Origin: an uncultured Alphaproteobacteria bacterium
GTDB taxonomy: Bacteria; Pseudomonadota; Alphaproteobacteria; Rhizobiales; Xanthobacteraceae
NCBI GenBank assembly: GCA_963816565.1
Contig: CAWFLM010000012.1
Location: 1-15,805 of the forward strand
Reading direction: 5' to 3'
Length of the DNA stretch: 15,805 nt
The notes under the pieces are model-generated. The model was not told the DNA's origin, did not search any database, and was given only the letters and a program-made list of their open reading frames with translations. A program made the position numbers and the translations under genes. Shown here piece after piece: positions 3,015-15,705 of the stretch. Within the stretch, counting starts at the first letter, position 1; every line of letters starts with the position of its first letter.

Positions 3015-4239
3015 TTGCCGATGTTGACACAACCGCAGACCCGGCAGCTCTGGGACGATCCCGCGCCGACGGCGCTGCTCGTGCTGGCCGACGGCACCGT
3101 GCTCGAAGGCTTGGGCTTCGGCGCGACCGGCCATGCCGTCGGCGAAGTCTGCTTCAATACCGCGATGACCGGTTACGAGGAAATCCTCACCGATCCGTCC
3201 TATGCCGGCCAGATCATCACCTTCACCTTTCCGCATATCGGCAATGTCGGCACCAACGAGGAGGACATCGAGACCGTCAACCTCGCGGCGACGCCAGGCG
3301 CGCGCGGCGTCATTCTGCACTCGCCGATCACCGCGCCGTCGAATTATCGCGCCACGCGCCATCTCGATGCCTGGCTCAAGAGCCGCGGCGTCATCGGGCT
3401 TTCGCGGCATCGACACCCGCGCGCTCACCGCGCTTCATCCGCAAGAACGGCATGCCGAACGCGGTGATCGTCCACGAGCCGTCCGGCCGCTTCGATCTCG
3501 ATGAGCTCAAGCGCGAAGCGAGGCAATGGCCGGGACTGGTCGGCATGGACCTCGTGCCGATGGTGACTTCCGGCCAGCGCTTCACCTGGCAGGAGACGCC
3601 GTGGGTCTGGGGCGAAGGCTACGGCGAAATGCGCGACGCCGGAATTTCACGTCGTCGCCATCGATTACGGCATCAAGCGCAACATTCTGCGCCAGCTCGC
3701 CGGCAGTCGTTGCAGGGTGACGGTGGTGCCGGCGCAGACGTCGGCCGCCGACATTCTGGCGCTCAAGCCGGACGGCATTTTTCTCTCCAACGGCCCCGGC
3801 GATCCGGCCGCGACCGGCGAATATGCCGTGCCGGTGATCCGCACCCTGATCGAGCAAAAGCCGGTGTTCGGCATCTGCCTCGGCCACCAGATGCTGGGCC
3901 TCGCGCTCGGCGGCCAAGACCATGAAGATGCATCAGGGCCATCACGGCGCGAACCATCCGGTGAAGGATCTCGCGACCGGCAAGGTCGAGATCACCTCGA
4001 TGAATCACGGCTTCGCGGTCGACCGCGCCAGCCTGCCGCCGAACGTCGTGGAAACCCACGTCTCGCTGTTCGACGGCTCCAATTGCGGGCTCGCGCTCAA
4101 GGACCGGCCGGTATTCTCGGTTCAGTACCATCCCGAGGCGTCGCCCGGCCCGCGCGACAGCCACGGGCTGTTCAAGCGGTTTGTCGACCTGATGCGGGAG
4201 TTCAAACGGAGCTTGAGCGCGGGCAAAATCCGGGCCTGA
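3015..4239 (+). CDS. carA: Carbamoyl-phosphate synthase small (glutamine amidotransferase) subunit CarA. It needs about 3 frame shifts.
   Basis: ORF 3015-3467 reads [40 protein letters not shown]...[33 protein letters not shown], the CPSase small-chain N-domain. The pieces at 3452-3925 and 3717-4529 carry the GATase domain ([43 protein letters not shown]). ORF 3922-4239 reads [14 protein letters not shown]...MNHGFAV...[26 protein letters not shown]. Confidence 0.92.
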
Positions 4240-4823: not shown

Positions 4824-5529
4824 GTGGCGGGCATGATCACCGACTGGCTGGCGTTCTGGGACGGTCCGCATTTCATTTACGTCAGCGCGCGCCACAAGGA
4901 TGTCCACTATCGCCTGATCGCGAAAGAGATCGCGGCGCTGGTCCCCGGCCCCGACGCACGCGTGCTCGATTACGGCTCGGGCGAGGCGCTGCACGCCGAC
5001 CTCGTCGCTGACGCCGCCGGCGAACTCTTGCTGTGCGAAGCGGCCGCCAGCGTGCGCGCGGGCCTCGAAAAGCGTTTTGCCGGACAACCCGAAAATCCGC
5101 GTCGATCGCGCCGCACGAAATCGCGCGGCTGCCCGAGCACTCGCTCGACCTGATCGTCATGCACTCGGTCGCTGCAGTATGTGACGCCGGCCGGCGCCGG
5201 CGTGCTGTTCGCGCTGTTTCACCGCATTTTGAAATCCGACGGCCTGCTCGTGGTGAGCGACGTCATCCAGCCGCAGACCGCTGCCGCGACCGATGCGTTT
5301 CGCTGCTGCGGTTCGGCATGGCCAACAGATTTTTCTTTGCCGCGCTGTGGGGCCTCGCGCGCACGCTGTTGTCGGATTACTGGCGGCTGCGCTCGCAACT
5401 CGGGCTGACGCGCTATGCCCAGGCGCCATGATCGAGAAACTCAGCGCCGCCGGCTTCACCGCGGAACGCGCGCCGGCCAATATCGGGCACAATCAGGAAC
5501 GCCGGACCTACTACGCGCGTCCGCGCTAG
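4824..5529 (+). CDS. Class I SAM-dependent methyltransferase, frameshifted.
   Basis: It reads MAGMITDWLAFWDGPHFIYVSARHKDVHYRLIAKEIAALVPGPDARVLDYGSGEALHADLV, which is motif I VLDYGSGEA. It continues in other frames with ...LDLIVMHSVAQYVTPAGAGVLFALFHRILKSDGLLVVSDVIQP...MIEKLSAAGFTAERAPANIGHNQERRTYYARPR*. Confidence 0.65.
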
Positions 5530-5535
5530 ACCCGT

Positions 5536-6776
5536 TCAGGCGACCGCTGCGAGCGCGCGCATGCGCGCCTGATCCACCAAGGCTCCGTTGCTTGATGACA
5601 TGCGCCGGCGGTTCGTGAAAGCGCAGCGCCTCGATGACGTCGGGTTGGTTCAGCACGACAAGGTCGGCCACCGCTCCCTCGGTCAACCGGAAGCCCGGAA
5701 GGTTGATGGCGGTGGCCGCGTCGACCGTGATCATGTCGTAGAGCTTTTCGACATCCTGCCGCGTCATCATCCATAACAGGTGCGAGGCGAGGAACGCGAC
5801 TTCCAGCATGTTGTTGCGGCCGAACGCGTAGTAGGCGTCGGAAATATCGTCCTGGCCGAGGCAGACGACGACGCCCTCGGCCAGCAATTCCTTGACGCGC
5901 GCGTGCAACGGACCGGTGTGCGGATCGGTCACGACAGCGATCCGCGCCGCACGCAAAAGCCGCGCGAGCCGCTGCACATAGGGCATCGGATAAAGGCTCA
6001 TCGCCCGGCAATGGTGCGCGAGCGCGCGGCCGTGCCAGCCGCGCTCGATGGTCTCGACCGCCATCATTTCCAGCGTGCGCAAACCGGGATCGCCGGCATC
6101 GTCAAGAAGCATGGAAACGTCCTTGTCGAATTTTTGCGCAAGATCGAAACAGGCTTTCACGTGCTTCGCGGCATCGGCCGTCGGTAAACTCGATCCACGG
6201 AATGCCGCCGACCACATCGGCGCCGAGCGCCATCGCCTCGCTGCATCAGTTCGAGCGCGCCCGGCTCGCGGACGATGCCGTCCTGGGCGAAGGCGACGAT
6301 TTGCAGATCGACAATGCCGCGGAATTCGTCGCGAACGCGAATGAGCGCCTTCACGCCTTCAAGACGCGCCTTGCCGTCAACGTCGGCAAAAGCACGAATG
6401 TGCAAGTTGCCGTGAAGCGCCGCCAGCGCCACGGCGCGGCGCGCATTTTCGACGATCCAGGATTTCCGCGTATTTTTCTTTGATCTTGCTGGCGAGTTCG
6501 ATGCCGGCCATCGCTTTGCCCATCGCCTCGCCCTGATAGGACTTGAGCGCTTCCTCCTCCATCATCGGCAAGCGTCCACACCTTGCACAGATGCAGGTGC
6601 GGATTGACGAAGGATTCGGTCACCAGATTGCCGCCGGCGTCGATCTCCGTCGTTCCGCGGCGATCGAGATTTTCACCGATAGCAACGATGCGGCCGTTCT
6701 TGATGCCGATCTCGGCAAGCCGATCGCGGCCGCGGAGCCGGGCACGGCGGATGGCGATGTCGAACGGCTGATCCAT
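5536..6776 (-). CDS. Amidohydrolase-superfamily protein, cytosine-deaminase/AtzC-like. It is split over 3 ORFs.
   Basis: The N-terminal ORF 6351-6776 (-) reads MDQPFDIAIRRARL...GGNLVTESFVNPHLHLCKVWTL, an HxH metal-binding motif. The middle ORF is 6157-6432 (-). The C-terminal ORF 5456-6217 (-) reads ...IAVVTDPHTGPLHARVKELLAEGVVVCLGQDDISDAYYAFGRNNMLEVAFLASHL.... A likely true C-terminus ...VIKQ-GALVDQARMRALAAVA* in the alternate frame ends near 5536. Confidence 0.8.
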
Positions 6777-7042
6777 TGCTCGATTTTAGTTCAAGGCGCT
6801 GCGAAAGCTTCTTGCTGCTAAAAGCCGACATATACCCCGGTCGTGGTGTATTTCCACCAAAGCGAAACTCTATTCTCGATCTCTTAGTTGCTCCGACCGC
6901 ACTATTTCCCCTGAGACAGGGAGCTTGCATGGTATTGCGCATTCTCACGGTCTGTCGCATCGTGATTTTAAGGATTTAGCGACCAGCTTTCCGCGTGCTC
7001 GGCGGCGATTCAACGATGGGTCCGATCAATTGACCGTATCCG

Positions 7043-8106
7043 ATGCAAAAAATGGGCTGCCCCCGTCCCACAAGCGGTGGTTCAACCCCTGACCCGCGCC
7101 GCGATCTTTCTGATCGTGACCATAAATCCTGGCGTCGAAAATCGTGCGGCCGTCCGGTCATTCTGCGGAGACCTGCCGGCGCTCCTTCGCGCCGTGGGTT
7201 TCCGCGACATCGAAGGCGAGCTTGTCCTGCGTCCTCGGATTTGGATCGGATGCGTGGGACAGGCTTTTCGGCACGCCGCGGCCGGCCGAGCTGCATCCGT
7301 TCCGCGAAATCAAGGCCGGTCCCCGCCATGCCGTCGCCACGCCCGGCGACATGCTGTTTCACATCCGCGCCAAGCGCATGGATCTCTGCTTCGAGCTGGC
7401 CACCCAGATCATGGCGCGGCTCAAAGATGCGGTTTCGCCCGTCGACGAGGTACACGGCTTTAGATATTTCGATGACCGTGATCTGGTCGGATTTGTCGAC
7501 GGAACGGAAAATCCGACGGATCAAGCGGCACTCGACGCCGCACTCGTCGAGCCTGGAGGACGCCGCGTTTGCCGGCGGCAGCTACGTGATCGTGCAAAAA
7601 TACTTGCATGATCTGGCCGGCTGGAACGCGCTATCCACCGAAGCTCAGGAACGCATCATCGGCCGCACCAAGCTTTCAGACATCGAGCTTGATGACGCTG
7701 TCAAACCAACATGCGCTCACAATGCGCTCACCACGATCGTGGAGGACGGCAAGGAAGTAAAGATCGTTCGCGACAACATGCCGTTCGGCTCGGTGGCGAA
7801 GGCGGAGTTCGGGACCTATTTCATCGGTTACGCTCGTTCGCCCCGAACGATCGAGCAAATGCTGGTGAATATGTTCGTCGGCCGGCCTCCTGGCAATTAT
7901 GACCGGTTGCTGGATTTCAGCCGCGCTGTAAGCGGCAGTCTTGTTCTTCGCGCCGTCGGCGACGTTCCTGGAGAATGTCGCGGACGACGAGCCCGTGGCG
8001 CCTTTGCCGCCGCGCTGCGGTTGCGGCGCCGGCGCAACCGGCGGCATCTGCGCGCGATGGATCGCTCGGTATTGGTTCCCTCAAAGGAGATCCTCCTCAT
8101 GAATAA
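7043..8106 (+). CDS. Dyp-type peroxidase, encapsulin cargo, with a C-terminal targeting peptide. It needs about 4 frame shifts and the 5' start is uncertain (7043-7077).
   Basis: Frame 0 reads ...AVVQPLTRAAIFLIVTINPG...LRAVGFRDIEGELV. Frame 1 (ORF 7144-7611) reads ...LHPFREIKAGPRHAVATPGDMLFHIRAKRMDLCFELATQIMARL...VDEVHGFRYFDDRDLVGFVDGTENPTD, the DyP GXXDG motif. Frame 2 reads ...GGSYVIVQKYLHDLAGWNALSTEAQERIIGRTK...GTYFIGYARSPRTIEQMLVNMFVGRPPGNYDRLLDFSRAVSGSL. Frame 0 then reads SLFFAPSATFLENVADDEPVAP. Frame 1 ends ...PAQPAASARDGSLGIGSLKGDPPHE* with TAA at 8104-8106. SLGIGSLKG is the canonical encapsulin cargo-loading peptide. Confidence 0.88.
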
Positions 8107-8938
8107 TCTTTACCGCGAGCTTGCTCCGATCTCAGACGCGGCGTGGTCTCAGATCGAGGAGGAGACCTCCCGCACGTTCAAGCGCTACCTCGCCGGACGG
8201 CGCGTCGTTGACATGCAGGGTCCGGGCGGTGTCGCGCTTCCGGCCATCGGCACCGGCCATTTGCGCGATATTAAAGCGTCCGGCGACGGCATCATCTCGC
8301 GCCAGCGCGAGGTGAAAGCGCTGGTCGAACTGCGCGTACCCTTCGAGCTTAGTCGCCAGCAGATCGACGATGTCGAGCGCGGCGCTAACGACTCAGACTG
8401 GCAGCCCGCGAAGGACGCCGCGCAGAGGATAGCCTTTGCGGAAGATCGCGCCATATTCGAAGGCTATGTCGCCGGCGGAATCGGCGGCATCCGGGAAGGG
8501 ACCAGCAATCCAGTGACGGCGCTTCCAGCCGACGTGCGCGCCTACCCGGACGCCATCGCCAAAGCGGTAAGCCAGTTGCGTCTGGTCGGCGTCAACGGTC
8601 CATATTCCGTGCTGCTCAGCGCCGATGCCTACACCAGCCTCAGCGAGACCAGCGATCACGGTTATCCGGTACTTGACCACGTCAAACGTCTGGTGGATGG
8701 CGAAATTATATGGGCGCCGGCAATCGCGGGCGCATTCGTGCTGACAACCCGCGGCGGCGATTTCGGCCTGTACATCGGCCAGGACGTATCGATCGGCTAT
8801 CTGAGCCACACCGAAGCAGTCGTCCGCCTTTACCTACAGGAGACATTCACTTTTCTCTTGCTCACGACGGAAGCTGCTGTCGCGTTAGCTCCCCCTGCGG
8901 ACGCGCGGTCGAATCCCGCTCAGCGAAAGCAGCGCTGA
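8099..8938 (+). CDS. Family 1 encapsulin nanocompartment shell protein (HK97 fold). It is the only long gene here that reads through without frame breaks.
   Basis: It reads MNNLYRELAPISDAAWSQIEEETSRTFKRYLAGRRVVDMQGP...DDVERGANDSDWQPAKDAAQRIAFAEDRAIFEGY...VGVNGPYSVLLSADAYTSLSETSDHGYPVLDHVKRL...EIIWAPAIAGAFVLTTRGGDFGLYIGQDVSIGYLSHTEAVVRLYLQETFTF. This matches characterised DyP-associated encapsulins end to end. Its ATG at 8099 overlaps the DyP stop (cATGAATAA). The last about 14 aa (PADARSNPAQRKQR) may be a read-through of a frame error. Confidence 0.92.
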   Translation: MNNLYRELAPISDAAWSQIEEETSRTFKRYLAGRRVVDMQGPGGVALPAIGTGHLRDIKASGDGIISRQREVKALVELRVPFELSRQQIDDVERGANDSDWQPAKDAAQRIAFAEDRAIFEGYVAGGIGGIREGTSNPVTALPADVRAYPDAIAKAVSQLRLVGVNGPYSVLLSADAYTSLSETSDHGYPVLDHVKRLVDGEIIWAPAIAGAFVLTTRGGDFGLYIGQDVSIGYLSHTEAVVRLYLQETFTFLLLTTEAAVALAPPADARSNPAQRKQR

Positions 8939-9061
8939 TCCATCGAGATCAGCGCATTCGCTTCCGAACGAAAGCTGCAGTCGTCGTGATGGAGAAGAGC
9001 CAACAAAGAGTAACTTGTCGACAAAAGATTTATAAGCTCCGCCCCAAAAAGACGTCCAAAA

Positions 9062-9112
9062 AGACTTGCCCAAAAAGAAGAGGTCGCCTGCGATATTTTT
9101 CGCAAGCGACCT
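9062..9112 (-). terminator. Rho-independent terminator for paralog A on the minus strand.
   Basis: Plus-strand AGGTCGCCTGCG (9081-9092), loop ATATTTTT, then CGCAAGCGACCT (9101-9112). This is a 12-bp stem with 1 mismatch. On the minus strand it is followed by CTTCTTTTTGGGCAAGTCTTTTTGGACGTCTTTTTGGGG, which gives three T5 runs. It lies 37 nt after the gene A stop. Confidence 0.6.
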
Positions 9113-9148: not shown

Positions 9149-9941
9149 TTAGTTCTTCGCCTGCCCGTTGGCCTTCAGAAAGTCCTGATAGGTGAGGCCC
9201 GCGTAGTTCGGCGTGGTCGGCGCTTGCGTTGCGTCGGCAGCCGGCGCCACAGGCGCTGCGTCGATGGATTTGCTGCCGGCCGGCGACACCGGGGTCGTGT
9301 CGGACAGGCCCCACCGACCGGCGCGCTGGCCGCTTCTTTGGTGAAGACTCGGCAAACACCACTAGGCCATCCTGCGTGTAAGCCTTGGTCAGGCAGGTGC
9401 ACGGACCGGGCGAAGCCACAGACACCGGGGCCGCATCCGCGAGTTCACCAGCAACCGTATCGATAGATACAGCGACCATCACGGAGAATCCAGTGCCCGT
9501 GACCATTGAATGCCCAGCCGGGTTGACCCGGGAAACCTGGACGGCCGGGATAGCCTGGACGGCCCGGATTGAGGATCGGAAGGCCAACCGTGCGACCGCC
9601 GCCACCGTTGTAGCCGCCTGTGCCAGTGCCGACGCGGCCACCGTTACCGGTACCAGTACCGACCTGGCCACCATTGTTGCCGGCGGTGCCGAGACCGCTG
9701 CCGGCGCGCTGCTGTTGCCGAAGTTGTTAGCGGAAACGGTGCTGTACTGTACCGGAAACTGAGCTGGCGCCGAAGGCGCGTACCGCTGGCGGTCTTGTCC
9801 GCGAGACACTGTGGTTGACGCCGCTGCCGCGACTGGCATTACCGCCGCCGCTGGAACCACGGGCATAAGATTCGCTAGATGAAACGAGGCAACGGTGATC
9901 GTGGCCGCGGCTGCAAGGCTGAGGATGAGGGTGCGTGACAT
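9149..9941 (-). CDS. Paralog A of a secreted Gly/His-rich, Cys-containing protein of unknown function. It carries a signal peptide and several 1-nt indels.
   Basis: The ATG at 9939-9941 sits behind GGAGAAC-N6. The N-terminus MSRTLILSLAAAATITVASF is a Sec signal peptide. Alternate frames give a Gly-rich region (GSGLGTAGNNGGQVGTGTGNGGRVGTGTGGYNGGGG), a collagen-like PGRPGYPGRPGFPGQPG stretch, then GWAFNGHGHWILRDGR, then ...ELADAAPVSVASPGPCTCLTKAYTQDGLVVFAES-TKEAASAPVGGA..., and the C-terminus ...DAAPVAPAADATQAPTTPNYAGLTYQDFLKANGQAKN* (ORF 9149-9355). The 303-aa ORF 9030-9941 is an artefactual read-through. Confidence 0.6.
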
Positions 9942-9974: not shown

Positions 9975-10014
9975 TTGCGATACCCGTTAGTCGGAGTTGT
10001 CGGAGAAAGGTTCA
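9975..10014 (-). promoter_or_regulatory. Putative ECF-sigma-dependent promoter of paralog A.
   Basis: On the minus strand it reads TGAACC (plus 10009-10014), then TTTCTCCGACAACTC (15 nt), then CGACTAA (plus 9987-9993), then the conserved AACGGGTATCGCAA. The -10 element ends 45 nt before the ATG. The same architecture is found upstream of paralog B and of the ECF sigma gene. Confidence 0.4.
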
Positions 10015-10134
10015 GGGCCGGTGAAGATCGCGATCGGCCTCGAGCGCGCCGCCGCAAGCGGGCCGGCAGGCGCCCTTAACTGGCGGGCCCTCATCAATGC
10101 CGGATAGGATCGATTGGCGGATTGCAATGAAAGT

Positions 10135-11013
10135 CTATTGGACCAGTTCGAGCACAAAATCCATCGGCTCGGCAATCGAATAACCCGAGTTAAGAAGCAT
10201 CGTAAAATCCGCCGCTTTTTCGGTCAGTGGAATAAACTCAGTCATGATGCCGACAAGATGAAAGTATATTTCAGAACCCTCCGGATCGATTTCAAATACC
10301 GGCCCTCCGCTGTTTCCCCTGTACACCGGGCCATCAATAATCAAAGAACGTCTTTGCGGATCTTTTCCGGCGATAAAAGCCTTTCGCAGCAGCGGCCGCA
10401 GCGGATCGAATTGTTGGTGTCAGGAAGACCCAGCGACGCCGGGTAGCCATACAAAATAGCATCGTTTCCGACCAGAACTTGATCGAACTTTCGGACCGCA
10501 ATCATTCCCGCACTAACCAGGCCGCTGTCCGCAAATTCGACTTTTGCGACCCCCGGCGAAAAGAATGTCATCAGCGAGTGATCCTGGGCTTCCTTCAGAA
10601 TCCCGAGCTTGATGGCTGCAACATCTCTCGTTTTGTGCGGCTTCACATCGCCCCGATCCAGCAGCATTTTGAAATCGACCCTCAGCAAAATCCGCTGCGG
10701 CGTCGGCTGATCCATCGAGTATGACACCAGTTCAAGAACCAGATCCGGCACTTCGGCTTTGTGGGTTTTTTCGTTGGGCAGGCCTGACGCTATGACGTGT
10801 TTTGCGGTCACCAAATATTCTGCATTGGCGGTACCAAAATAAAAACCCGAGCCAAAGCCCAACGTCGTTCCACTACTGTTTTTCATGATAACCAAGACGG
10901 GATAGGCCAAATTGTCGTCGGGAATCATCCGCCTCGCCTGCGCCAAATTGATCGACACGAACGGCCAAAGCGACGACCAGGAACAAGCGGCTGATTTGGA
11001 GCAGGTGATTCAT
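10135..11013 (-). CDS. Secreted trypsin-like (S1 / chymotrypsin-fold) serine peptidase. It sits in a low-GC island and has 2 frame shifts.
   Basis: A signal peptide MNHLLQISRLFLVVALAVRVD starts at the ATG at 11011-11013. ORF 10341-10958 (-) carries the His motif LVTAKHVIASG and the Asp motif TRDVAAIKLGIL. ORF 10135-10344 (-) carries the Ser motif YRGNSGGPVF (GDSGGP-like) and ends ...SIAEPMDFVLELVQ*. GC is about 47-50% over 10.1-11.1 kb, against about 65% in the flanks. Confidence 0.75.
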
Positions 11014-11154
11014 CGCAACAGCCTTTCAAGATCGGACCTCGCTTTTGGCAGACGCGCCTTTAGCCGCCTCAACTGTAGAACAGCGCGCCCATTTCGTCGC
11101 CCGTCGTTCCGAGCTGGAATGCCGTCGCCAAAAAACTATTTAAGACACTCGCAC

Positions 11155-11201
11155 TAACAAAAAAGAGACAGGTCGCCTGCGATACGTTTCGCAGGCGACC
11201 T
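11155..11201 (-). terminator. Rho-independent terminator for paralog B on the minus strand.
   Basis: Plus-strand AGGTCGCCTGCG (11170-11181), loop ATACGTTT, then CGCAGGCGACCT (11190-11201). This is a perfect 12-bp stem. On the minus strand it is followed by GTCTCTTTTTTGTT. It lies 39 nt after the gene B stop. Its stem sequence is nearly identical to the terminator at 9081-9112. Confidence 0.65.
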
Positions 11202-11239
11202 TCATTCTCATTTCCGGCGTGGGCGTTTTGCCGGCGTCT

Positions 11240-11886
11240 TCAGTTCTTTTCCGCTGCCTGCGCTGCCGCCTGGCCGTTGGCCTTCAGGAAGTCCTGATAG
11301 GTGAGGCCCGCGTAGTTCGGCGTGGTCGGCGCTTGCGTTGCGTCGGCAGCCGGCGCCACGGGCGCTGTGTCGTTGGACTTGCTGTTGGCCGGCGGTACCG
11401 GGGTAGCGTCGGAAGAGGCGCCGCCGATCGCCGCGCTGGCTGCTTCTTTGGTGCACATATCGGCGAACACCACCAGACCGGCCTGCGTGTAAGTCTTGGT
11501 CAGGCAGGTGCACGGACCGGGAGCAGCCGCAGATACGGGCGCCGCATCCGCGAGGTCACCATCCACCGGGTCGATGACGATCCAGCGGCCACCACGGAAA
11601 ATCCAGTGTCCGTGACCATGGCCGGCCCAACGGCCGGGAGCCGGAGCCGATCCGGGTGACCGGGACGGTCGCCATTGCGGGCTACACGTCCGCCACCATC
11701 GCGGCCGCCGCGGCCGGCGCCGGTACGTCCGCCGACATTGACGTGACCGCCGACGCTGGCATGACCGCCGAAACTGGCATGACCGCCGCCGCCGCCGAAA
11801 CCGTGGGCGTAAGAAGCGCTGGAAGCAAGCGAGGCGACGGTGATCGTGGCCGCGGCTGCGAGGGTGAGGATCAGGGTGCGTGACAT
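11240..11886 (-). CDS. Paralog B of the secreted Gly/His-rich, Cys-containing protein, about 215 aa. It has a signal peptide and at least 1 frame shift.
   Basis: The ATG at 11884-11886 sits behind GGAGAAC. It reads MSRTLILTLAAAATITVASLASSASYA, a signal peptide with an AxA cleavage site. This is followed by HGFGGGGGHASFGGHASVGGHVNVGGRTGAGRGGRDGGGRVA, which contains GGHxx[FV] hexapeptide repeats. After a frame shift it reads ...APGRWAGHGHGHWIFRGGRWIVIDPVDGDLADAAPVSAAAPGPCTCLTKTYTQAGLVVFADMCTKEAASAAIGGASSDATPVPPANSKSNDTAPVAPAADATQAPTTPNYAGLTYQDFLKANGQAAAQAAEKN* (ORF 11240-11566). The 263-aa ORF 11500-12291 is an artefact that runs past the true start. Confidence 0.65.
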
Positions 11887-11918: not shown

Positions 11919-11959
11919 TTTCGATACCCGTTGGTCGGTGGCTCCCGGAGAAAGGTTCA
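11919..11959 (-). promoter_or_regulatory. Putative ECF-sigma-dependent promoter of paralog B.
   Basis: On the minus strand it reads TGAACC (plus 11954-11959), then TTTCTCCGGGAGCCAC (16 nt), then CGACCAA (plus 11931-11937), then AACGGGTATCGAAA. The -10 element ends 44 nt before the ATG. The 5'-UTR ...CCCTGGAGAAC(A/G)AC(G/C)ATG is conserved with paralog A. Confidence 0.4.
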
Positions 11960-12177: not shown

Positions 12178-12206
12178 TGAACCTGGGCGCCGCTCCCAAC
12201 GACCAA
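12178..12206 (+). promoter_or_regulatory. Putative autoregulatory ECF-type promoter of the sigma factor gene.
   Basis: TGAACC (12178-12183), then TGGGCGCCGCTCCCAA (16 nt), then CGACCAA (12200-12206). It lies 23 nt upstream of the ATG at 12230. It has the same -35/-10 sequences and spacing as the promoters of paralogs A and B. Confidence 0.35.
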
Positions 12207-12229: not shown

Positions 12230-12790
12230 ATGCAGACGACTTCGGACGAGGTTCTGATCGGAAGGATCGCCAATGGCGACCGGCTCGCCATGCAGGTGCT
12301 GTTCGCGCGTCACCATGTCCGGGTTTACCGATTCGTGCTGCGGCTGGTGCGCAACGAGGCAACGGCGGAGGATTTGATCAGTGAGGTGTTCCTCGACGTC
12401 TGGCGGCAGGCCGGCAGGTTCGAGGGACGGTCAGCGGTGTCGACCTGGATGTTGAGCATCGCCCGCTTCAAGGCGCTGTCGGCGCTGCGCAAGCGTACCG
12501 AGGAGGAGCTGGATGACGAGACGGCCAGCGCGATCGAGGATCATGCCGACGATCCGGAGGTCTCGCTGGCGAAGAAGGATAAAGCCGCCGTGTTGCGGCA
12601 ATGCCTGGGCAAGCTCTCGGCCGAGCACCGGGAGGTCGTCGACCTCGTATACTACCATGAGAAATCGGTGGAGGAGGTCGCGGGCATTGTCGGCATTCCG
12701 GAGGCGACCGTGAAGACGCGCATGTTCTATGCGCGGAGGAAACTGTCGGAGCTCCTCAAGGAGCAAGGAATGGATCGAGGTTGGCCATGA
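12230..12790 (+). CDS. ECF-family RNA polymerase sigma-70 factor.
   Basis: It reads MQTTSDEVLIGRIANGDRLAMQVLFARHHVRVYRFVLRLVRNEATAEDLISEVFLDVWRQAGRFEGRSAVSTWMLSIARFKALSALRKR, which is region 2. It continues ...LSAEHREVVDLVYYHEKSVEEVAGIVGIPEATVKTRMFYARRKLSELL, which is region 4. The six-frame ORF starts at 12116, but the N-terminal alignment and the promoter favour 12230. Its TGA overlaps the anti-sigma ATG (CCATGACC). Confidence 0.9.
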   Translation: MQTTSDEVLIGRIANGDRLAMQVLFARHHVRVYRFVLRLVRNEATAEDLISEVFLDVWRQAGRFEGRSAVSTWMLSIARFKALSALRKRTEEELDDETASAIEDHADDPEVSLAKKDKAAVLRQCLGKLSAEHREVVDLVYYHEKSVEEVAGIVGIPEATVKTRMFYARRKLSELLKEQGMDRGWP

Positions 12791-13467
12791 CCGCGGCGCA
12801 AGGAAAGCGAGCCGAACGAAATCGAACTCCTGCTGCCTTGGCACGCGGCGGGAACGCTCAGCCAACGCGACAAGCAGCGCGTGGAAGCCGCGCTCGCCAA
12901 CGACCCGGAGCTTGCGCGCCGCTACCAGCTGGTGCGCGAGGAGCTTGGCGAGACCATCCACCTCAACGAGACGCTGGGGGCGCCATCGGCGCGCGCCATG
13001 GAAGCGCTATTCGCCAAGATCGACGCCGAGCCGGCGCGAGCCCCGGCGGTGTCGATCAATGTCGGCGTGCGCATTCGCGAATTTTTGCCGGCCTTTCGCC
13101 GCGCACGCTTGCCTGGTCGGCAAGCGCGGCGATGCTGGCCATTCTGCTGCAGGCCGGATTGATTGCCGGCATTCTGTTCAAAGAACAAGGCGCCCAGACT
13201 GCGGCCAACTACCAAACGGCCTCGCTGTCGCGCCCGGCCAGCGGCGAAGGTTCCTATGCGCTGATCCGTTTCCAGCCGCAGGCCAATGCCGCCGAAATCA
13301 GCAAATTCCTGGAAACCAACAAACTCACTATCGCCGACGGCCCGTCGCCGGGCGGGCTATATCGGGTGCGCGTCGCGCCGAGCAAGGTTTCCGGTACGGA
13401 CCTCACCGGCATCGTGAAGAAGCTGCAGGACAATAGCGTTGTGGGCTTTATCGCCCCCACGGAGTGA
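12787..13467 (+). CDS. Cognate anti-sigma factor, a single-pass membrane protein. It needs 2 frame shifts.
   Basis: Stitched over 3 frames it reads MTAAQGKRAEPNEIELLLPWHAAGTLSQRDKQRVEAALANDPELARRYQLVREELGETIHLNETLGAPSARAMEALFAKIDAEP.... It then reads ...LSPRTLAWSASAAMLAILLQAGLIAGILF, which is a transmembrane helix. It continues ...YALIRFQPQANAAEISKFLETNKLTIADGPSPGGLYRVRVAPS...VGFIAPTE*. The N-terminal ELLLPW..G.LS motif is typical of ECF anti-sigma factors. It is translationally coupled to the sigma gene. Confidence 0.75.
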   Translation: MTAAQGKRAERNRTPAALARGGNAQPTRQAARGSRARQRPGACAPLPAGARGAWRDHPPQRDAGGAIGARHGSAIRQDRRRAGASPGGVDQCRRAHSRIFAGLSPRTLAWSASAAMLAILLQAGLIAGILFKEQGAQTAANYQTASLSRPASGEGSYALIRFQPQANAAEISKFLETNKLTIADGPSPGGLYRVRVAPSKVSGTDLTGIVKKLQDNSVVGFIAPTE

Positions 13468-13556: not shown

Positions 13557-15705
13557 ATGCGAAGCAAGCGATGACGTCCCGATCGATCCTGGGGGTTATG
13601 CTCTTCGGTTTGTTTTGGCGGTAGCTGCATTGACAAATCTGGCCCCGCCGCAGCGCGCGGCTTCGGCGGCGGCGTTTTGGCGGGGGGGCGCGCGGATGTT
13701 CGCGGCATGCGCGGCGGCGGATCGCACCACGAATGACGCGGAGTAGCGGCAGGACAAGTGGCGGTACATCCACCAAACGCGACGTCGGCAATTCGAGCGG
13801 ACCAGGACAACAAACACGTCGGGGACGGCCAGCCATCACGCGAACGTCGGCCGCCAATTCCGGAACAAAAACGACAAATACTGAACCAACTACAATTCTA
13901 GCTTGAGTTCATCCGGCAAGCACCGTCAAAAACGACGCATCAGGGGAACGGCAACATTTCGACCTCGAAAACATTGACGAATCAACACCGGTTCGAAAAC
14001 AACCAACATCAGGGGAGCAGCAACACTTCCACTGCGAACACGTCGACGACTGCCGGCTCGAGAACAACGACACGCAAGGAAGCGGCAACAATTCCACCGT
14101 GAACAGGTCGGCGAGCAATACCGGCTCAAGAACCACGACCACGACCGGCAACACGTCGACATCGAACACGTCGAACGCCAATGCCGGCTCGACGACAACA
14201 AACACACAGGGGCCGGCCAACACCCACCGGAAACACTCAGCCGCCAACAACGGCTCGAGGACGGGAAGCACGCCGGGGACCGGCGGCAATTCCACATCGA
14301 ATACGCCGGGCGCCACTACCGGTTCGGACACTGGTCGGGCCGGGGACGGTCGCTAATGCCGGCTCGAATACATCTGACACGCCGCGCGGTGGCGGCCGCG
14401 TTCCCGGCTGCAGTGCCGAACATTCCGCCGGGGCCTGTTGGTCTTGGCGGTGGCGGTGGCGGCGCAGGGGGTGGCGGCGGAGGTGCCGGTGGCGGCGGCG
14501 GAGGTGGCGCGGGTGGCGGAGCCAATGTGGCCAGCAGCGGCGTCCCACCGCGAAACGAGCGGCGCTACGTACCTGACGAAGTCATCGCTGAGTTTTCGTC
14601 GACCGCGACGCCGCAATCGATCGATCAGCTCGCACGCCGGTACAATTTGACCCGGCTTGAATCGCAAAGCTTCCCATTGATCGGCACCATCATTTACCGC
14701 TGGCACATCAACGGCCGCCGCTCAGTCCGGATACAATCGGTGCGATCGAAGACCAGCGCGTCGTCGCCAGAGCACAGCCCAATTACCTTTTCACGCTGCA
14801 AGCAGACGCCACAACCCCGGCGACAAAAACCCGCGGCGACGATTCGGCCCAATACGCCCTCGGCAAGCTGCACATCGAACGCGCGCATCAAGTCGCGACC
14901 GGGAAAAACATTCCGATTGCCTTGATCGACTCCGAGATCGACGTGAAACATCCGGACCTGAATGGAGCAATCACAAAAAGCTTCGATCCGCTCGGTGGAG
15001 ATGCCAAGCCGCACCCGCACGGCACTGCCATGGCAGGCGCCATCGCCGCGCACGGGAAACTTTCCGGCATCGCTTTAGGCCCGCATCTGTTGGCGGCGCG
15101 CGCCTTCGACAACACCGCGGGCGAGACCAAGGGTACCTCTCTTGCGATCTACAAAAGCCTGCAGTGGGCCGCGGACAATGGCGCTCGCGTCATCAACATG
15201 AGCTTCGCCGGCCCCGCCGACCCCGACATGCACCGGATGCTGGCGGCCGCATACGAGAAAGGCATCGTGCTGGTAGCGGCAGCCGGAAACGCCGGACCCA
15301 ACTCCGCACCGCTTTATCCGGCGGCCGATCCCGACGTCATCGCGGTGACTGCCACCGACAGCAATGACGGTCTGTTCAAGATGGCCAACCGCGGCTCATA
15401 CATTGCCGTTGCTGCTCCGGGCGTGGAGATTCTGGCACTGGCGCCCGGTAAACCGTATCAGATCACCACGGGCACCTCGGTCGCCGCGGCGCATGTCAGC
15501 GGGATCGCGGCAATGCTGCTCAAAGAAAAACCTTCGCTCACGCCCAACAAGTCCGCTCGATCATCATGTCTACTGCCAAGCCGCTCGGATCGGCCGGCCA
15601 GCGATCGGACTTTGGCGCCGGACTGGTCGATGCCTACCAGGCGGTGACGGCGATAGGAACGGCAAGCCGGCGGTTAAACAGGACGCCGAACAGGCAAAGG
15701 AATAA
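13557..15705 (+). CDS. Secreted subtilisin-like (S8) serine peptidase. It has a long N-terminal low-complexity Ser/Thr/Asn/Gly repeat region, a poly-Gly tract and an I9-like propeptide. The N-terminal part has many frame shifts and the 5' extent is uncertain.
   Basis: The catalytic domain (ORF 14922-15647 plus neighbouring frames) reads IALIDSEIDVKHPDL (Asp), HPHGTAMAGAIAAHG (His), AAAGNAGPNS (Asn) and TTGTSVAAAHVSGIAAMLL (Ser). The propeptide reads NERRYVPDEVIAEFSSTATPQSIDQLARRYNL.... Upstream are GLGGGGGGAGGGGGGAGGGGGGGAGGG and NTGSRTTTTTGNTSTSNTSNANAGSTTTNTQGP... repeats. A candidate signal peptide MRSKR-MTSRSILGVMLFGLF-LAVAALTNLAPPQRAASA sits at 13557, 6 nt after GGGAGG. Every frame has stops between 13746 and 14100, so the link between the signal peptide and the protease rests on assuming indels. 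The gene ends ...AYQAVTAIGNGKPAVKQDAEQAKE* at 15705. Confidence 0.8.
13920..14400 (+). repeat. About 7 degenerate tandem copies of a unit of about 60-68 nt that encodes an STNG-rich peptide repeat.
   Basis: The anchor [AT][AG]CCGG[CT]TC[GA]A recurs at about 13988, 14051, 14119, 14181, 14249, 14317 and 14356. Spacings are 63, 68, 62, 68, 68 and 39 nt. Translated units look like NTGSRTTTTTGNTSTSNTSNA, NAGSTTTNTQGPANT... and NNGSRTGSTPGTGGNSTSNTPGA. Confidence 0.6.
14443..14525 (+). repeat. GGN codon tract encoding poly-Gly (G6-7 A)x4.
   Basis: The DNA reads ggcggtggcggtggcggcgcagggggtggcggcggaggtgccggtggcggcggcggaggtggcgcgggtggcgga. The antisense poly-Pro ORF 14316-14525 and the WRWRW/AVAVAA ORFs in other frames are artefacts of this tract. 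Confidence 0.7.

Follow-up and report, generated by a model that had tools for sequence, protein, structure and literature searches.

A low-GC gene for a predicted exported trypsin-fold protease, probably an old accessory resident of an ECF sigma factor locus in uncultured Xanthobacteraceae

The described peptidases closest to the protein studied here are those of the Trypsin_2 family (MEROPS clan PA, S1-like) and the HtrA/DegP/DegS group (S1C). In the latter group, DegS is the classical protease that acts on RseA, the anti-sigma factor of an extracytoplasmic function (ECF) sigma factor. Here, we analysed a contig of 15,805 bp from an uncultured bacterium of the Xanthobacteraceae (CAWFLM010000012.1; the whole stretch is called the window), in which the gene for a trypsin-like protease sits between two paralogous modules, B (9072 to ~10040) and A (11161 to ~11985), close to a gene pair for an ECF sigma factor and an anti-sigma factor (Table 1). 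Taken as a whole, the evidence makes it probable that this gene encodes an exported trypsin-fold protease and is an old accessory resident of the locus whose low GC content fits a foreign origin, and that the breaks in its reading frame are indels of the assembly.

A preliminary description of the contig, made from the letters alone, had placed a gene for a secreted S1-fold protease in a low-GC stretch. A trypsin-fold protease is indeed encoded there, but its gene lies on the minus strand and is not one open reading frame (ORF) in the window. The coding sequence runs from an ATG at 11013 to a stop at 10135 and spans 879 bp, and its translation is split over three frames, which hold the start (MNHLLQISRLFLVVALA), the body (FVSINLAQARRMIPDDNLAYPVL to GLPDT) and the C-terminal third (QQFDPLRPLL...GNSGGPVFEID...PMDFVLELVQ). 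Two single-base corrections give an intact ORF of 292 amino acids that is 93% identical at the nucleotide level to the orthologue in the related locus L004. In a protein search, intact homologues of 291-296 aa were found at 93-94% identity, grading down to ~40%.

The corrected protein matches Pfam PF13365 (Trypsin_2) over residues 55-243 with 32.5 bits compared to a cut-off of 27.6 (E=1.7e-7), and the homologues found carry a precomputed PF13365 assignment. Trypsin_2 is the sole Pfam domain in the protein, the chain stops right behind this domain, at residue 292, and no NCBIfam model matches it. The catalytic His, Asp and Ser that had been read from TAKHV, DVAAIKL and GNSGGP were confirmed: across 22 aligned homologues with 43-90% identity, the three residues (H72, D130 and S234 in the numbering of the close homologue P0002) are invariant. 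The same alignment has two further invariant motifs, IPDDNLAYPVL near the N-terminus and NSGYS..P.D..L (NSGYS..PMDFVLEL) near the C-terminus, and we know of no characterised S1 peptidase that carries either of them. An AlphaFold2 model of P0002, with a predicted local distance difference test score of 74.5 and a predicted template modelling (TM) score of 0.74, is mostly beta and has the double beta-barrel predicted for a chymotrypsin fold. When this model was compared with the PDB by Foldseek, 130 matches were obtained at E<=0.001, and the best 50 of them are all trypsin-fold proteins with a probability of 1.00, at modest TM-scores of 0.32-0.39. By a profile score above the gathering threshold, the order of His, Asp and Ser, the GNSGGP motif and the predicted double beta-barrel, the protein is best classed as a Trypsin_2/PA-clan serine peptidase; it differs from described members in that no curated subfamily matches it and its best sequence match in the PDB is weak. 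It would belong to an uncharacterised subfamily of exported bacterial S1-like peptidases, in itself an ordinary finding.

The best PDB sequence match is HtrA1 of Mycobacterium (E=1.2e-4), limited to profile positions 184-254 (~70 residues), and HtrA/DegP/DegS are the closest solved relatives by sequence. Both groups have a hydrophobic segment at the N-terminus, which in the window protease too would serve for export or anchoring, and the window protease gene adjoins an ECF/anti-sigma pair, which recalls the target of DegS. In contrast to HtrA, DegP and DegS, however, the window protease has no PDZ or other sensor domain in the Pfam scan and ends at 292 aa, its similarity is confined to the surroundings of the serine, and its family is also found away from any ECF locus. 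The missing PDZ domain and the restriction of the similarity to one segment rule out an HtrA/DegS-type identity. Weak hidden Markov model matches to the anti-phage proteases PDC-S45, RT-Protease XI and LmuA of PADLOC (E 3e-6 to 9e-4) come from the shared protease domain; their scores are 16-24 bits (best PDC-S45, 24), and unlike those systems the window protease starts with a signal-like segment and is neither fused to nor accompanied by a defence component. Since the PADLOC matches are weak and generic and the neighbours vary by locus, we rejected a role in defence.

A signal peptide of its own had also been ascribed to the protease, and a signal-like segment is present at the N-terminus. Read by eye, it fits the n-h-c rule (MNHLLQISR / LFLVVALAFVSI / NLAQA), with the cut before RR: MNHLLQISRLFLVVALAFVSINLAQA is followed by RR, and the small residues AQA occupy positions -3 to -1 of the putative cleavage site. 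The layout is common to the family, since a hydrophobic stretch at the N-terminus precedes the pattern A-x-A-[RK]-R-x-IPDDNLAYPVL in 22 of 22 aligned homologues. Such a segment would send the protein through the Sec pathway into the periplasm and be cleaved off behind AQA; there, the mature single-domain enzyme would cut peptide bonds by means of the His72-Asp130-Ser235 triad.

We next describe the base composition of the gene. The GC content of 10100-11100 is 0.520 compared to 0.635 for the remaining contig, and this is the lowest value among all 1-kb intervals (mean 0.628, sd 0.033; lowest elsewhere 0.582). In 300-bp intervals the GC content is 0.51-0.54 over 10051-11250 and ~0.60-0.72 on both sides. 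At 120-bp resolution the low-GC tract extends over ~10101-11240, and its border at the 3′ limit of the coding sequence is sharp, the adjoining spacer 10015-10134 having a GC content of 0.658. The trough reported in the preliminary description is thus real, but its figure of 47-50% fits sub-windows only (10101-10340 and 10761-10940; minima reach 0.45-0.50), and the mean is 52%. These results show that the low-GC tract is a single minus-strand gene together with its 5′ spacer.

The protease coding sequence in the window has a GC content of 0.515. In L004, the orthologue has a GC content of 0.511 and a GC content at third codon positions (GC3) of 0.58, compared to 0.59-0.68 and 0.72-0.86, respectively, for twelve neighbouring genes. 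From its own amino acids and the codon usage of the neighbours, the protease would be expected to have a GC content of 0.581, whereas 0.511 is observed; the same calculation comes within 0.02 of the observed value for 10 of the 12 neighbours, while carA and YqeY are 0.022 and 0.035 apart. The drop of ~0.12 splits into ~0.05 from amino-acid composition and ~0.07 from codon choice. Amino-acid composition alone, which the preliminary description had named as a possible cause of the drop, is rejected by the share of codon choice. The deficit is also found far outside this group, since in 37 of 40 loci, drawn from many phyla, the protease gene is poorer in GC than its flanks, by up to 0.21. A striking GC dip need not mean a recent insertion: the anomaly is common to the orthologues of the clade and to the whole protein family.

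The loci L003-L008 have the gene order of the window, namely anti-sigma factor, ECF sigma factor, paralog A (215 aa), protease (291 aa) and paralog B (278 aa). Their orthologue is 93% identical at the nucleotide level, lies at the same position and has an equally low GC content (0.511; GC3 0.58), and L004 and L007 also carry the encapsulin and DyP genes found in the window. The same gene at the same locus with equally low GC in related genomes is what the preliminary description had named as evidence that the gene is ancestral, and it argues against a recent insertion. In the metagenome-assembled genomes (MAGs) L009-L011, L013 and L017, the protease stands between the ECF gene, which is divergent from it, and a single paralog (ECF<->protease->single paralog). 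A further MAG, L061, has paralog A, then a protease remnant of 61 codons from the start of the gene, joined directly to the B promoter region, and then B (4998-5255), which is a genuine deletion; as judged from this junction, the protease is subject to a presence/absence polymorphism within the A-protease-B arrangement.

The protease is also found in other surroundings. In L012, L014 and L015 it forms a low-GC notch, at ~80% nucleotide identity, between the housekeeping genes pyrB and plsY (L012 3338-6519; L015 5881-7874, with an extra insertion of ~2 kb between the protease and plsY), and in L001 a paralog is followed by the protease in a lower-GC region with an integrase fragment. L010 and L022 are two copies of the protease in a single MAG. 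Within the Xanthobacteraceae, there are at least four genomic contexts of the protease. Outside the Alphaproteobacteria, it occurs as a single gene in Acidobacteriota, Nitrospira, Bacteroidota, Patescibacteria and others, often adjoining housekeeping genes. When the ORFs within 3 kb of the protease were clustered for 38 loci, no conserved neighbour was found outside the Xanthobacteraceae ECF locus, and a family-wide operon partner was rejected on this ground.

A profile search of 1.84 billion representative proteins gave 742 clusters (50% identity) at E<=1e-30 and 2124 at E<=0.001, and the close relatives come nearly all from MAGs and metagenomes. In a tblastn search of plasmid and phage collections, no homologue of the protease was found. 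Judged by these searches, the family is small, well separated and patchily spread across soil bacteria of many phyla, and the earlier remark that such proteases are uncommon holds for this family. With ~740 clusters at 50% identity and no characterised member found here, it is a modest target for biochemistry.

The protease is under purifying selection, with a ratio of nonsynonymous to synonymous divergence (dN/dS) of 0.07-0.15. Between L004 and L011, its dS is 1.06 compared to 0.41-0.47 for the ECF, anti-sigma and amidohydrolase genes. In a neighbour-joining tree, the copies of the window and L004 group with those of L001 and of the pyrB context, apart from the other ECF-locus copies. The doubled dS and this grouping suggest exchange or replacement among lineages. 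When copies from differing contexts are compared, homology at the nucleotide level reaches no more than ~20 bp beyond the ORF; a precise cassette was considered on this ground and rejected, since intergenic homology is lost anyway at a dS of ~0.7-1.1.

Single-gene genomic islets resemble the protease gene in their low GC and GC3, patchy spread, several contexts and loss in one relative. They differ in that no integrase, tRNA, insertion sequence or repeats bound the protease in the window, where the sole repeats are the paralog modules, in that its position is kept across the clade, and in that plasmids and phages hold no homologue. Scans of the window for tRNA genes and Rfam families also found nothing. 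Atypical base composition and codon usage, by which genomic islands are recognised, are found in the protease gene. Two other signs of an island are not seen: flanking mobility signatures are lacking in the window, and the gene is not absent from the same locus in close relatives, being present in L003-L008 and, in L009-L011, L013 and L017, beside the same ECF pair. Of the horizontal acquisition that had been proposed, a recent insertion does not stand, since relatives share both locus and GC content, while an older foreign origin is plausible from the codon choice, the GC deficit shared by loci of many phyla, the contexts and the dS. Such an origin would plausibly be old, or the gene repeatedly exchanged.

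The flanking sequences were confirmed to be duplicated paralog modules, which are 76-92% identical and form direct repeats ~1.95-2.1 kb apart. Of the two scenarios offered for this arrangement, a duplication that formed around the protease fits better, and an insertion into a tandem duplication is less favoured. Because relatives with a single paralog exist and L061 retains a remnant of the protease, the protease appears to have been resident before or independently of the second paralog. In a tree of the paralogs, A and B each group across the window and L004, while A and B of L061 pair together; this pairing would reflect concerted evolution or independent duplication, and it confounds the tree as a guide to the order of events. 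The 301-aa paralog of L001 was examined as a B/A hybrid left when a circle was excised through recombination between A and B, and this was dropped since the identities fit length differences equally.

In the reading that we favour, the protease would be a long-standing resident of the locus around the divergent ECF sigma/anti-sigma pair in this lineage of the Xanthobacteraceae. Its low GC would travel with the gene, owing in part to amino-acid composition and in larger part to AT-richer codons, and an originally foreign accessory gene would have been kept by purifying selection and probably exchanged among related lineages. Several points weigh against this reading. The excess dS is near saturation and could reflect weaker constraint on codons, or from GC-biased gene conversion (gBGC), in a low-GC3 gene; there is neither a plasmid or phage homologue nor a mobility gene flanking the protease in the window; the N-terminal segment could be a membrane anchor, as in DegS, and not a cleaved signal; and the indels lie mostly outside homopolymers, which leaves some room for real frameshifts in the protease.

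Another explanation is that the protease is a dedicated periplasmic partner of the ECF system, maturing or degrading the Gly/His-rich paralogs or acting as a site-1 protease on the anti-sigma factor, which we consider unlikely. It adjoins a paralog in three arrangements (A-protease-B, ECF<->protease-paralog and, in L001, paralog-protease), and all products of the locus appear to be exported or membrane proteins. Promoters of ECF factors usually combine a -35 element containing AAC with a -10 element containing CG. A motif of this kind, TGAACC-N15-18-CGAC, has 3 matches in the window compared to 0.2 expected, upstream of both paralogs and of the sigma gene, and the sites are kept in related ECF loci; the motif of EcfF (PMC3420878) is cited for comparison. 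The site ahead of the sigma gene is probably its autoregulatory promoter. Because ECF-type motifs lie upstream of both paralogs and the sigma gene, the paralogs are probably the regulon of the neighbouring ECF factor. In contrast, an ECF-type motif was looked for upstream of the protease and not found, and a strong terminator separates the protease from paralog A. In addition, related MAGs and members of other phyla have the protease by itself amid housekeeping genes, without a conserved neighbour, and it lacks a PDZ or other sensor domain.

It is less likely still that the protease, the Gly/His-rich paralogs and the ECF/anti-sigma pair together form a previously undescribed envelope-signalling module with a PDZ-less periplasmic protease. 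If so, the protease would act either by processing the paralogs that the ECF factor induces or by setting off the cleavage of the anti-sigma factor, and the persistent low GC would reflect the passing of the module between soil bacteria. In the literature on ECF factors and trypsin-like proteases in Bradyrhizobium, we found no description of an ECF/paralog/protease system. The ECF-type promoter motifs at the paralogs and the sigma gene offer a candidate regulon, open to testing, of an ECF system that is so far uncharacterised in uncultured Xanthobacteraceae from soil. In L001, motif sites at 5649, 6914, 7273, 8821 and 11416 lie ahead of five different genes for small membrane or exported proteins, which suggests a definable regulon for this uncharacterised ECF factor.

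Vertical descent without any transfer, in which the low GC would result from amino-acid composition and from a weak pressure of codon usage or gBGC on an accessory gene with low expression, is in our judgement quite improbable. The amino-acid sequence by itself lowers the expected GC content to 0.581, the locus is kept across the clade, purifying selection is strong, and plasmids and phages have no homologue, all of which are in keeping with descent. However, codon choice adds 0.07 to the drop, and the same deficit relative to the flanks recurs in hosts of many phyla. Moreover, the contexts of the gene are several and unrelated, one MAG among them having two copies (L010 and L022), the gene tree disagrees with the type of locus, and the gene is patchily spread, its close relatives having been seen in MAGs and metagenomes only.

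The frame breaks raise the question of a decaying pseudogene, with two true frameshifts in a gene on its way to loss, as in L061. Two breaks within 879 bp, the true deletion of most of the gene in that related MAG, and a database gene call (P0033, 195 aa) that appears to be a truncated call for the protease of the window would fit such decay. However, the break rate in the protease equals that of the whole contig. When intact proteins of L004 and L005 were searched against the window by tblastn, nearly every gene was split over 2-6 frames: the amidohydrolase gene is in six pieces, the DyP peroxidase gene in four, the S8 peptidase gene in four or more, the methyltransferase gene in three, and carA and the anti-sigma factor gene in two each. 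The nucleotide alignment of the window with L004 has 87 isolated 1-bp gaps, many of them within stretches of 90-97% identity in conserved genes (for example, 6178, 6240, 6463 and 6573 in the amidohydrolase gene and 3404-3912 in carA). Frame breaks are equally dense in carA and in the amidohydrolase and DyP genes. At the first break in the protease, the frame switches between ...LVVALA and FVSINLAQ; beyond the two indels, neither stop codons nor larger lesions interrupt the gene, which keeps its 93% identity to the intact orthologue. Because essential and conserved neighbours are equally damaged, an argument that does not draw on a known error model, the frame breaks are most likely assembly indels and the protease is most likely intact in the organism; a pseudogene is very improbable. 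ORF-based annotation of this contig is unreliable, and the 195-aa fragment is one example of a call that understates its gene content.

The recent horizontal insertion of a foreign protease between tandem paralogs deserves hardly any credence and is already largely refuted by conserved synteny: although the gene makes up the lowest-GC kilobase of the contig, with a sharp change in composition at its 3′ end, a GC3 far below that of its neighbours and nucleotide homology between contexts that stops ~20 bp from the ORF ends, neither its place nor its GC differs in L003-L008, five MAGs at a greater distance also have it beside this ECF pair, no tRNA, integrase or bounding repeats accompany it in the window, the remnant between A and B in L061 points to loss and not gain, and the loss of intergenic homology is expected anyway at the dS given above.

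Table 1. Positions of the protease gene and of neighbouring features in the window.
Feature	Position	Strand	Basis
Terminator-like hairpin ending paralog B, duplicate of that ending paralog A	9081-9112	-	13-bp stem
Paralog B, frameshifted in the window	9149..9941	-	same motif and PNYAGLTYQDFLKA tail as paralog A; orthologue in L004 encodes 278 aa
ECF-type promoter motif TGAACC-N15-CGAC, upstream of paralog B	9990..10014	-	motif scan
Protease coding sequence (Trypsin_2, 292 aa once corrected)	10135..11013	-	three-frame translation, Pfam, intact homologues, rebuilt ORF
Catalytic Ser235 codon (GNSGGP)	10309..10311	-	sequence; G-N-S-G-G invariant in 22-homologue alignment
Frameshift 2, one base missing between ...GLPDT and QQFDPLRPLL	10417..10419	-	1-bp deletion relative to L004 at ~10418; tblastn frame switch
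Catalytic Asp130 codon (RDVAAIKL)	10623..10625	-	sequence; column invariant in 22-homologue alignment
Catalytic His72 codon (TAKHV)	10797..10799	-	sequence; column invariant in 22-homologue alignment
Signal-like N-terminus MNHLLQISRLFLVVALAFVSINLAQA, likely cleavage after AQA	10935..11013	-	read by eye from the sequence
Frameshift 1, one extra base within the signal-peptide region	10962..10964	-	isolated 1-bp insertion relative to L004 at ~10963
Protease 5′ spacer, low GC (0.532), without ECF-type promoter motif	11014..11169	-	GC content and motif scan
Intrinsic-terminator-like hairpin ending paralog A, upstream of the protease	11170..11201	-	13-bp stem followed by a T run
Paralog A, exported Gly/His-rich protein	11240..11886	-	PCTCLTK...CTKE motif, PNYAGLTYQDFLKA tail; orthologue in L004 encodes 215 aa
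ECF-type promoter motif TGAACC-N16-CGAC, upstream of paralog A	11934..11959	-	motif scan
ECF-type promoter motif, 27 bp upstream of the likely ECF sigma start	12178..12203	+	motif scan
ECF sigma factor gene, divergent from paralog A	12230..12790	+	L004 orthologue matches NCBIfam NF009168 with 330 bits; tblastn
Anti-sigma factor gene, frameshifted	12800..13467	+	weak zf-HC2/anti-sigma matches of the L004 orthologue; tblastn in two frames

In each paralog module, the gene for an exported Gly/His-rich protein is preceded by a conserved 5′ region and followed by a terminator-like hairpin, and neither paralog matches a Pfam or NCBIfam model. Periodic repeats of 18 nt occur in the Gly/His-rich stretch of paralog A (11713-11792; see also 9826-9851), and low-complexity length variation accounts for the paralog sizes of 215, 278 and 301 aa.

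Elsewhere in the window, a gene for a DyP-type peroxidase is followed by the gene for an encapsulin shell protein (Linocin_M18) at 7030-8935 on the plus strand, a classic pair of cargo and shell. The two appear as one fused ORF of 631 aa in the window because of frameshifts. In L004, a gene with the ABC_sub_bind domain (PF04392) lies between paralog B and the encapsulin gene (5022-6180); it is missing from the window, where the gap is ~90 bp (8939-9029). Within the part that encodes the N-terminus of an S8 peptidase (13800-14400), staggered and repeated blastn matches occur at offsets of ~68-88 bp, together with a very pronounced AT skew, as high as +0.57, and a dip of the local GC content to 0.53, which suggests a coding region with an internal tandem repeat.

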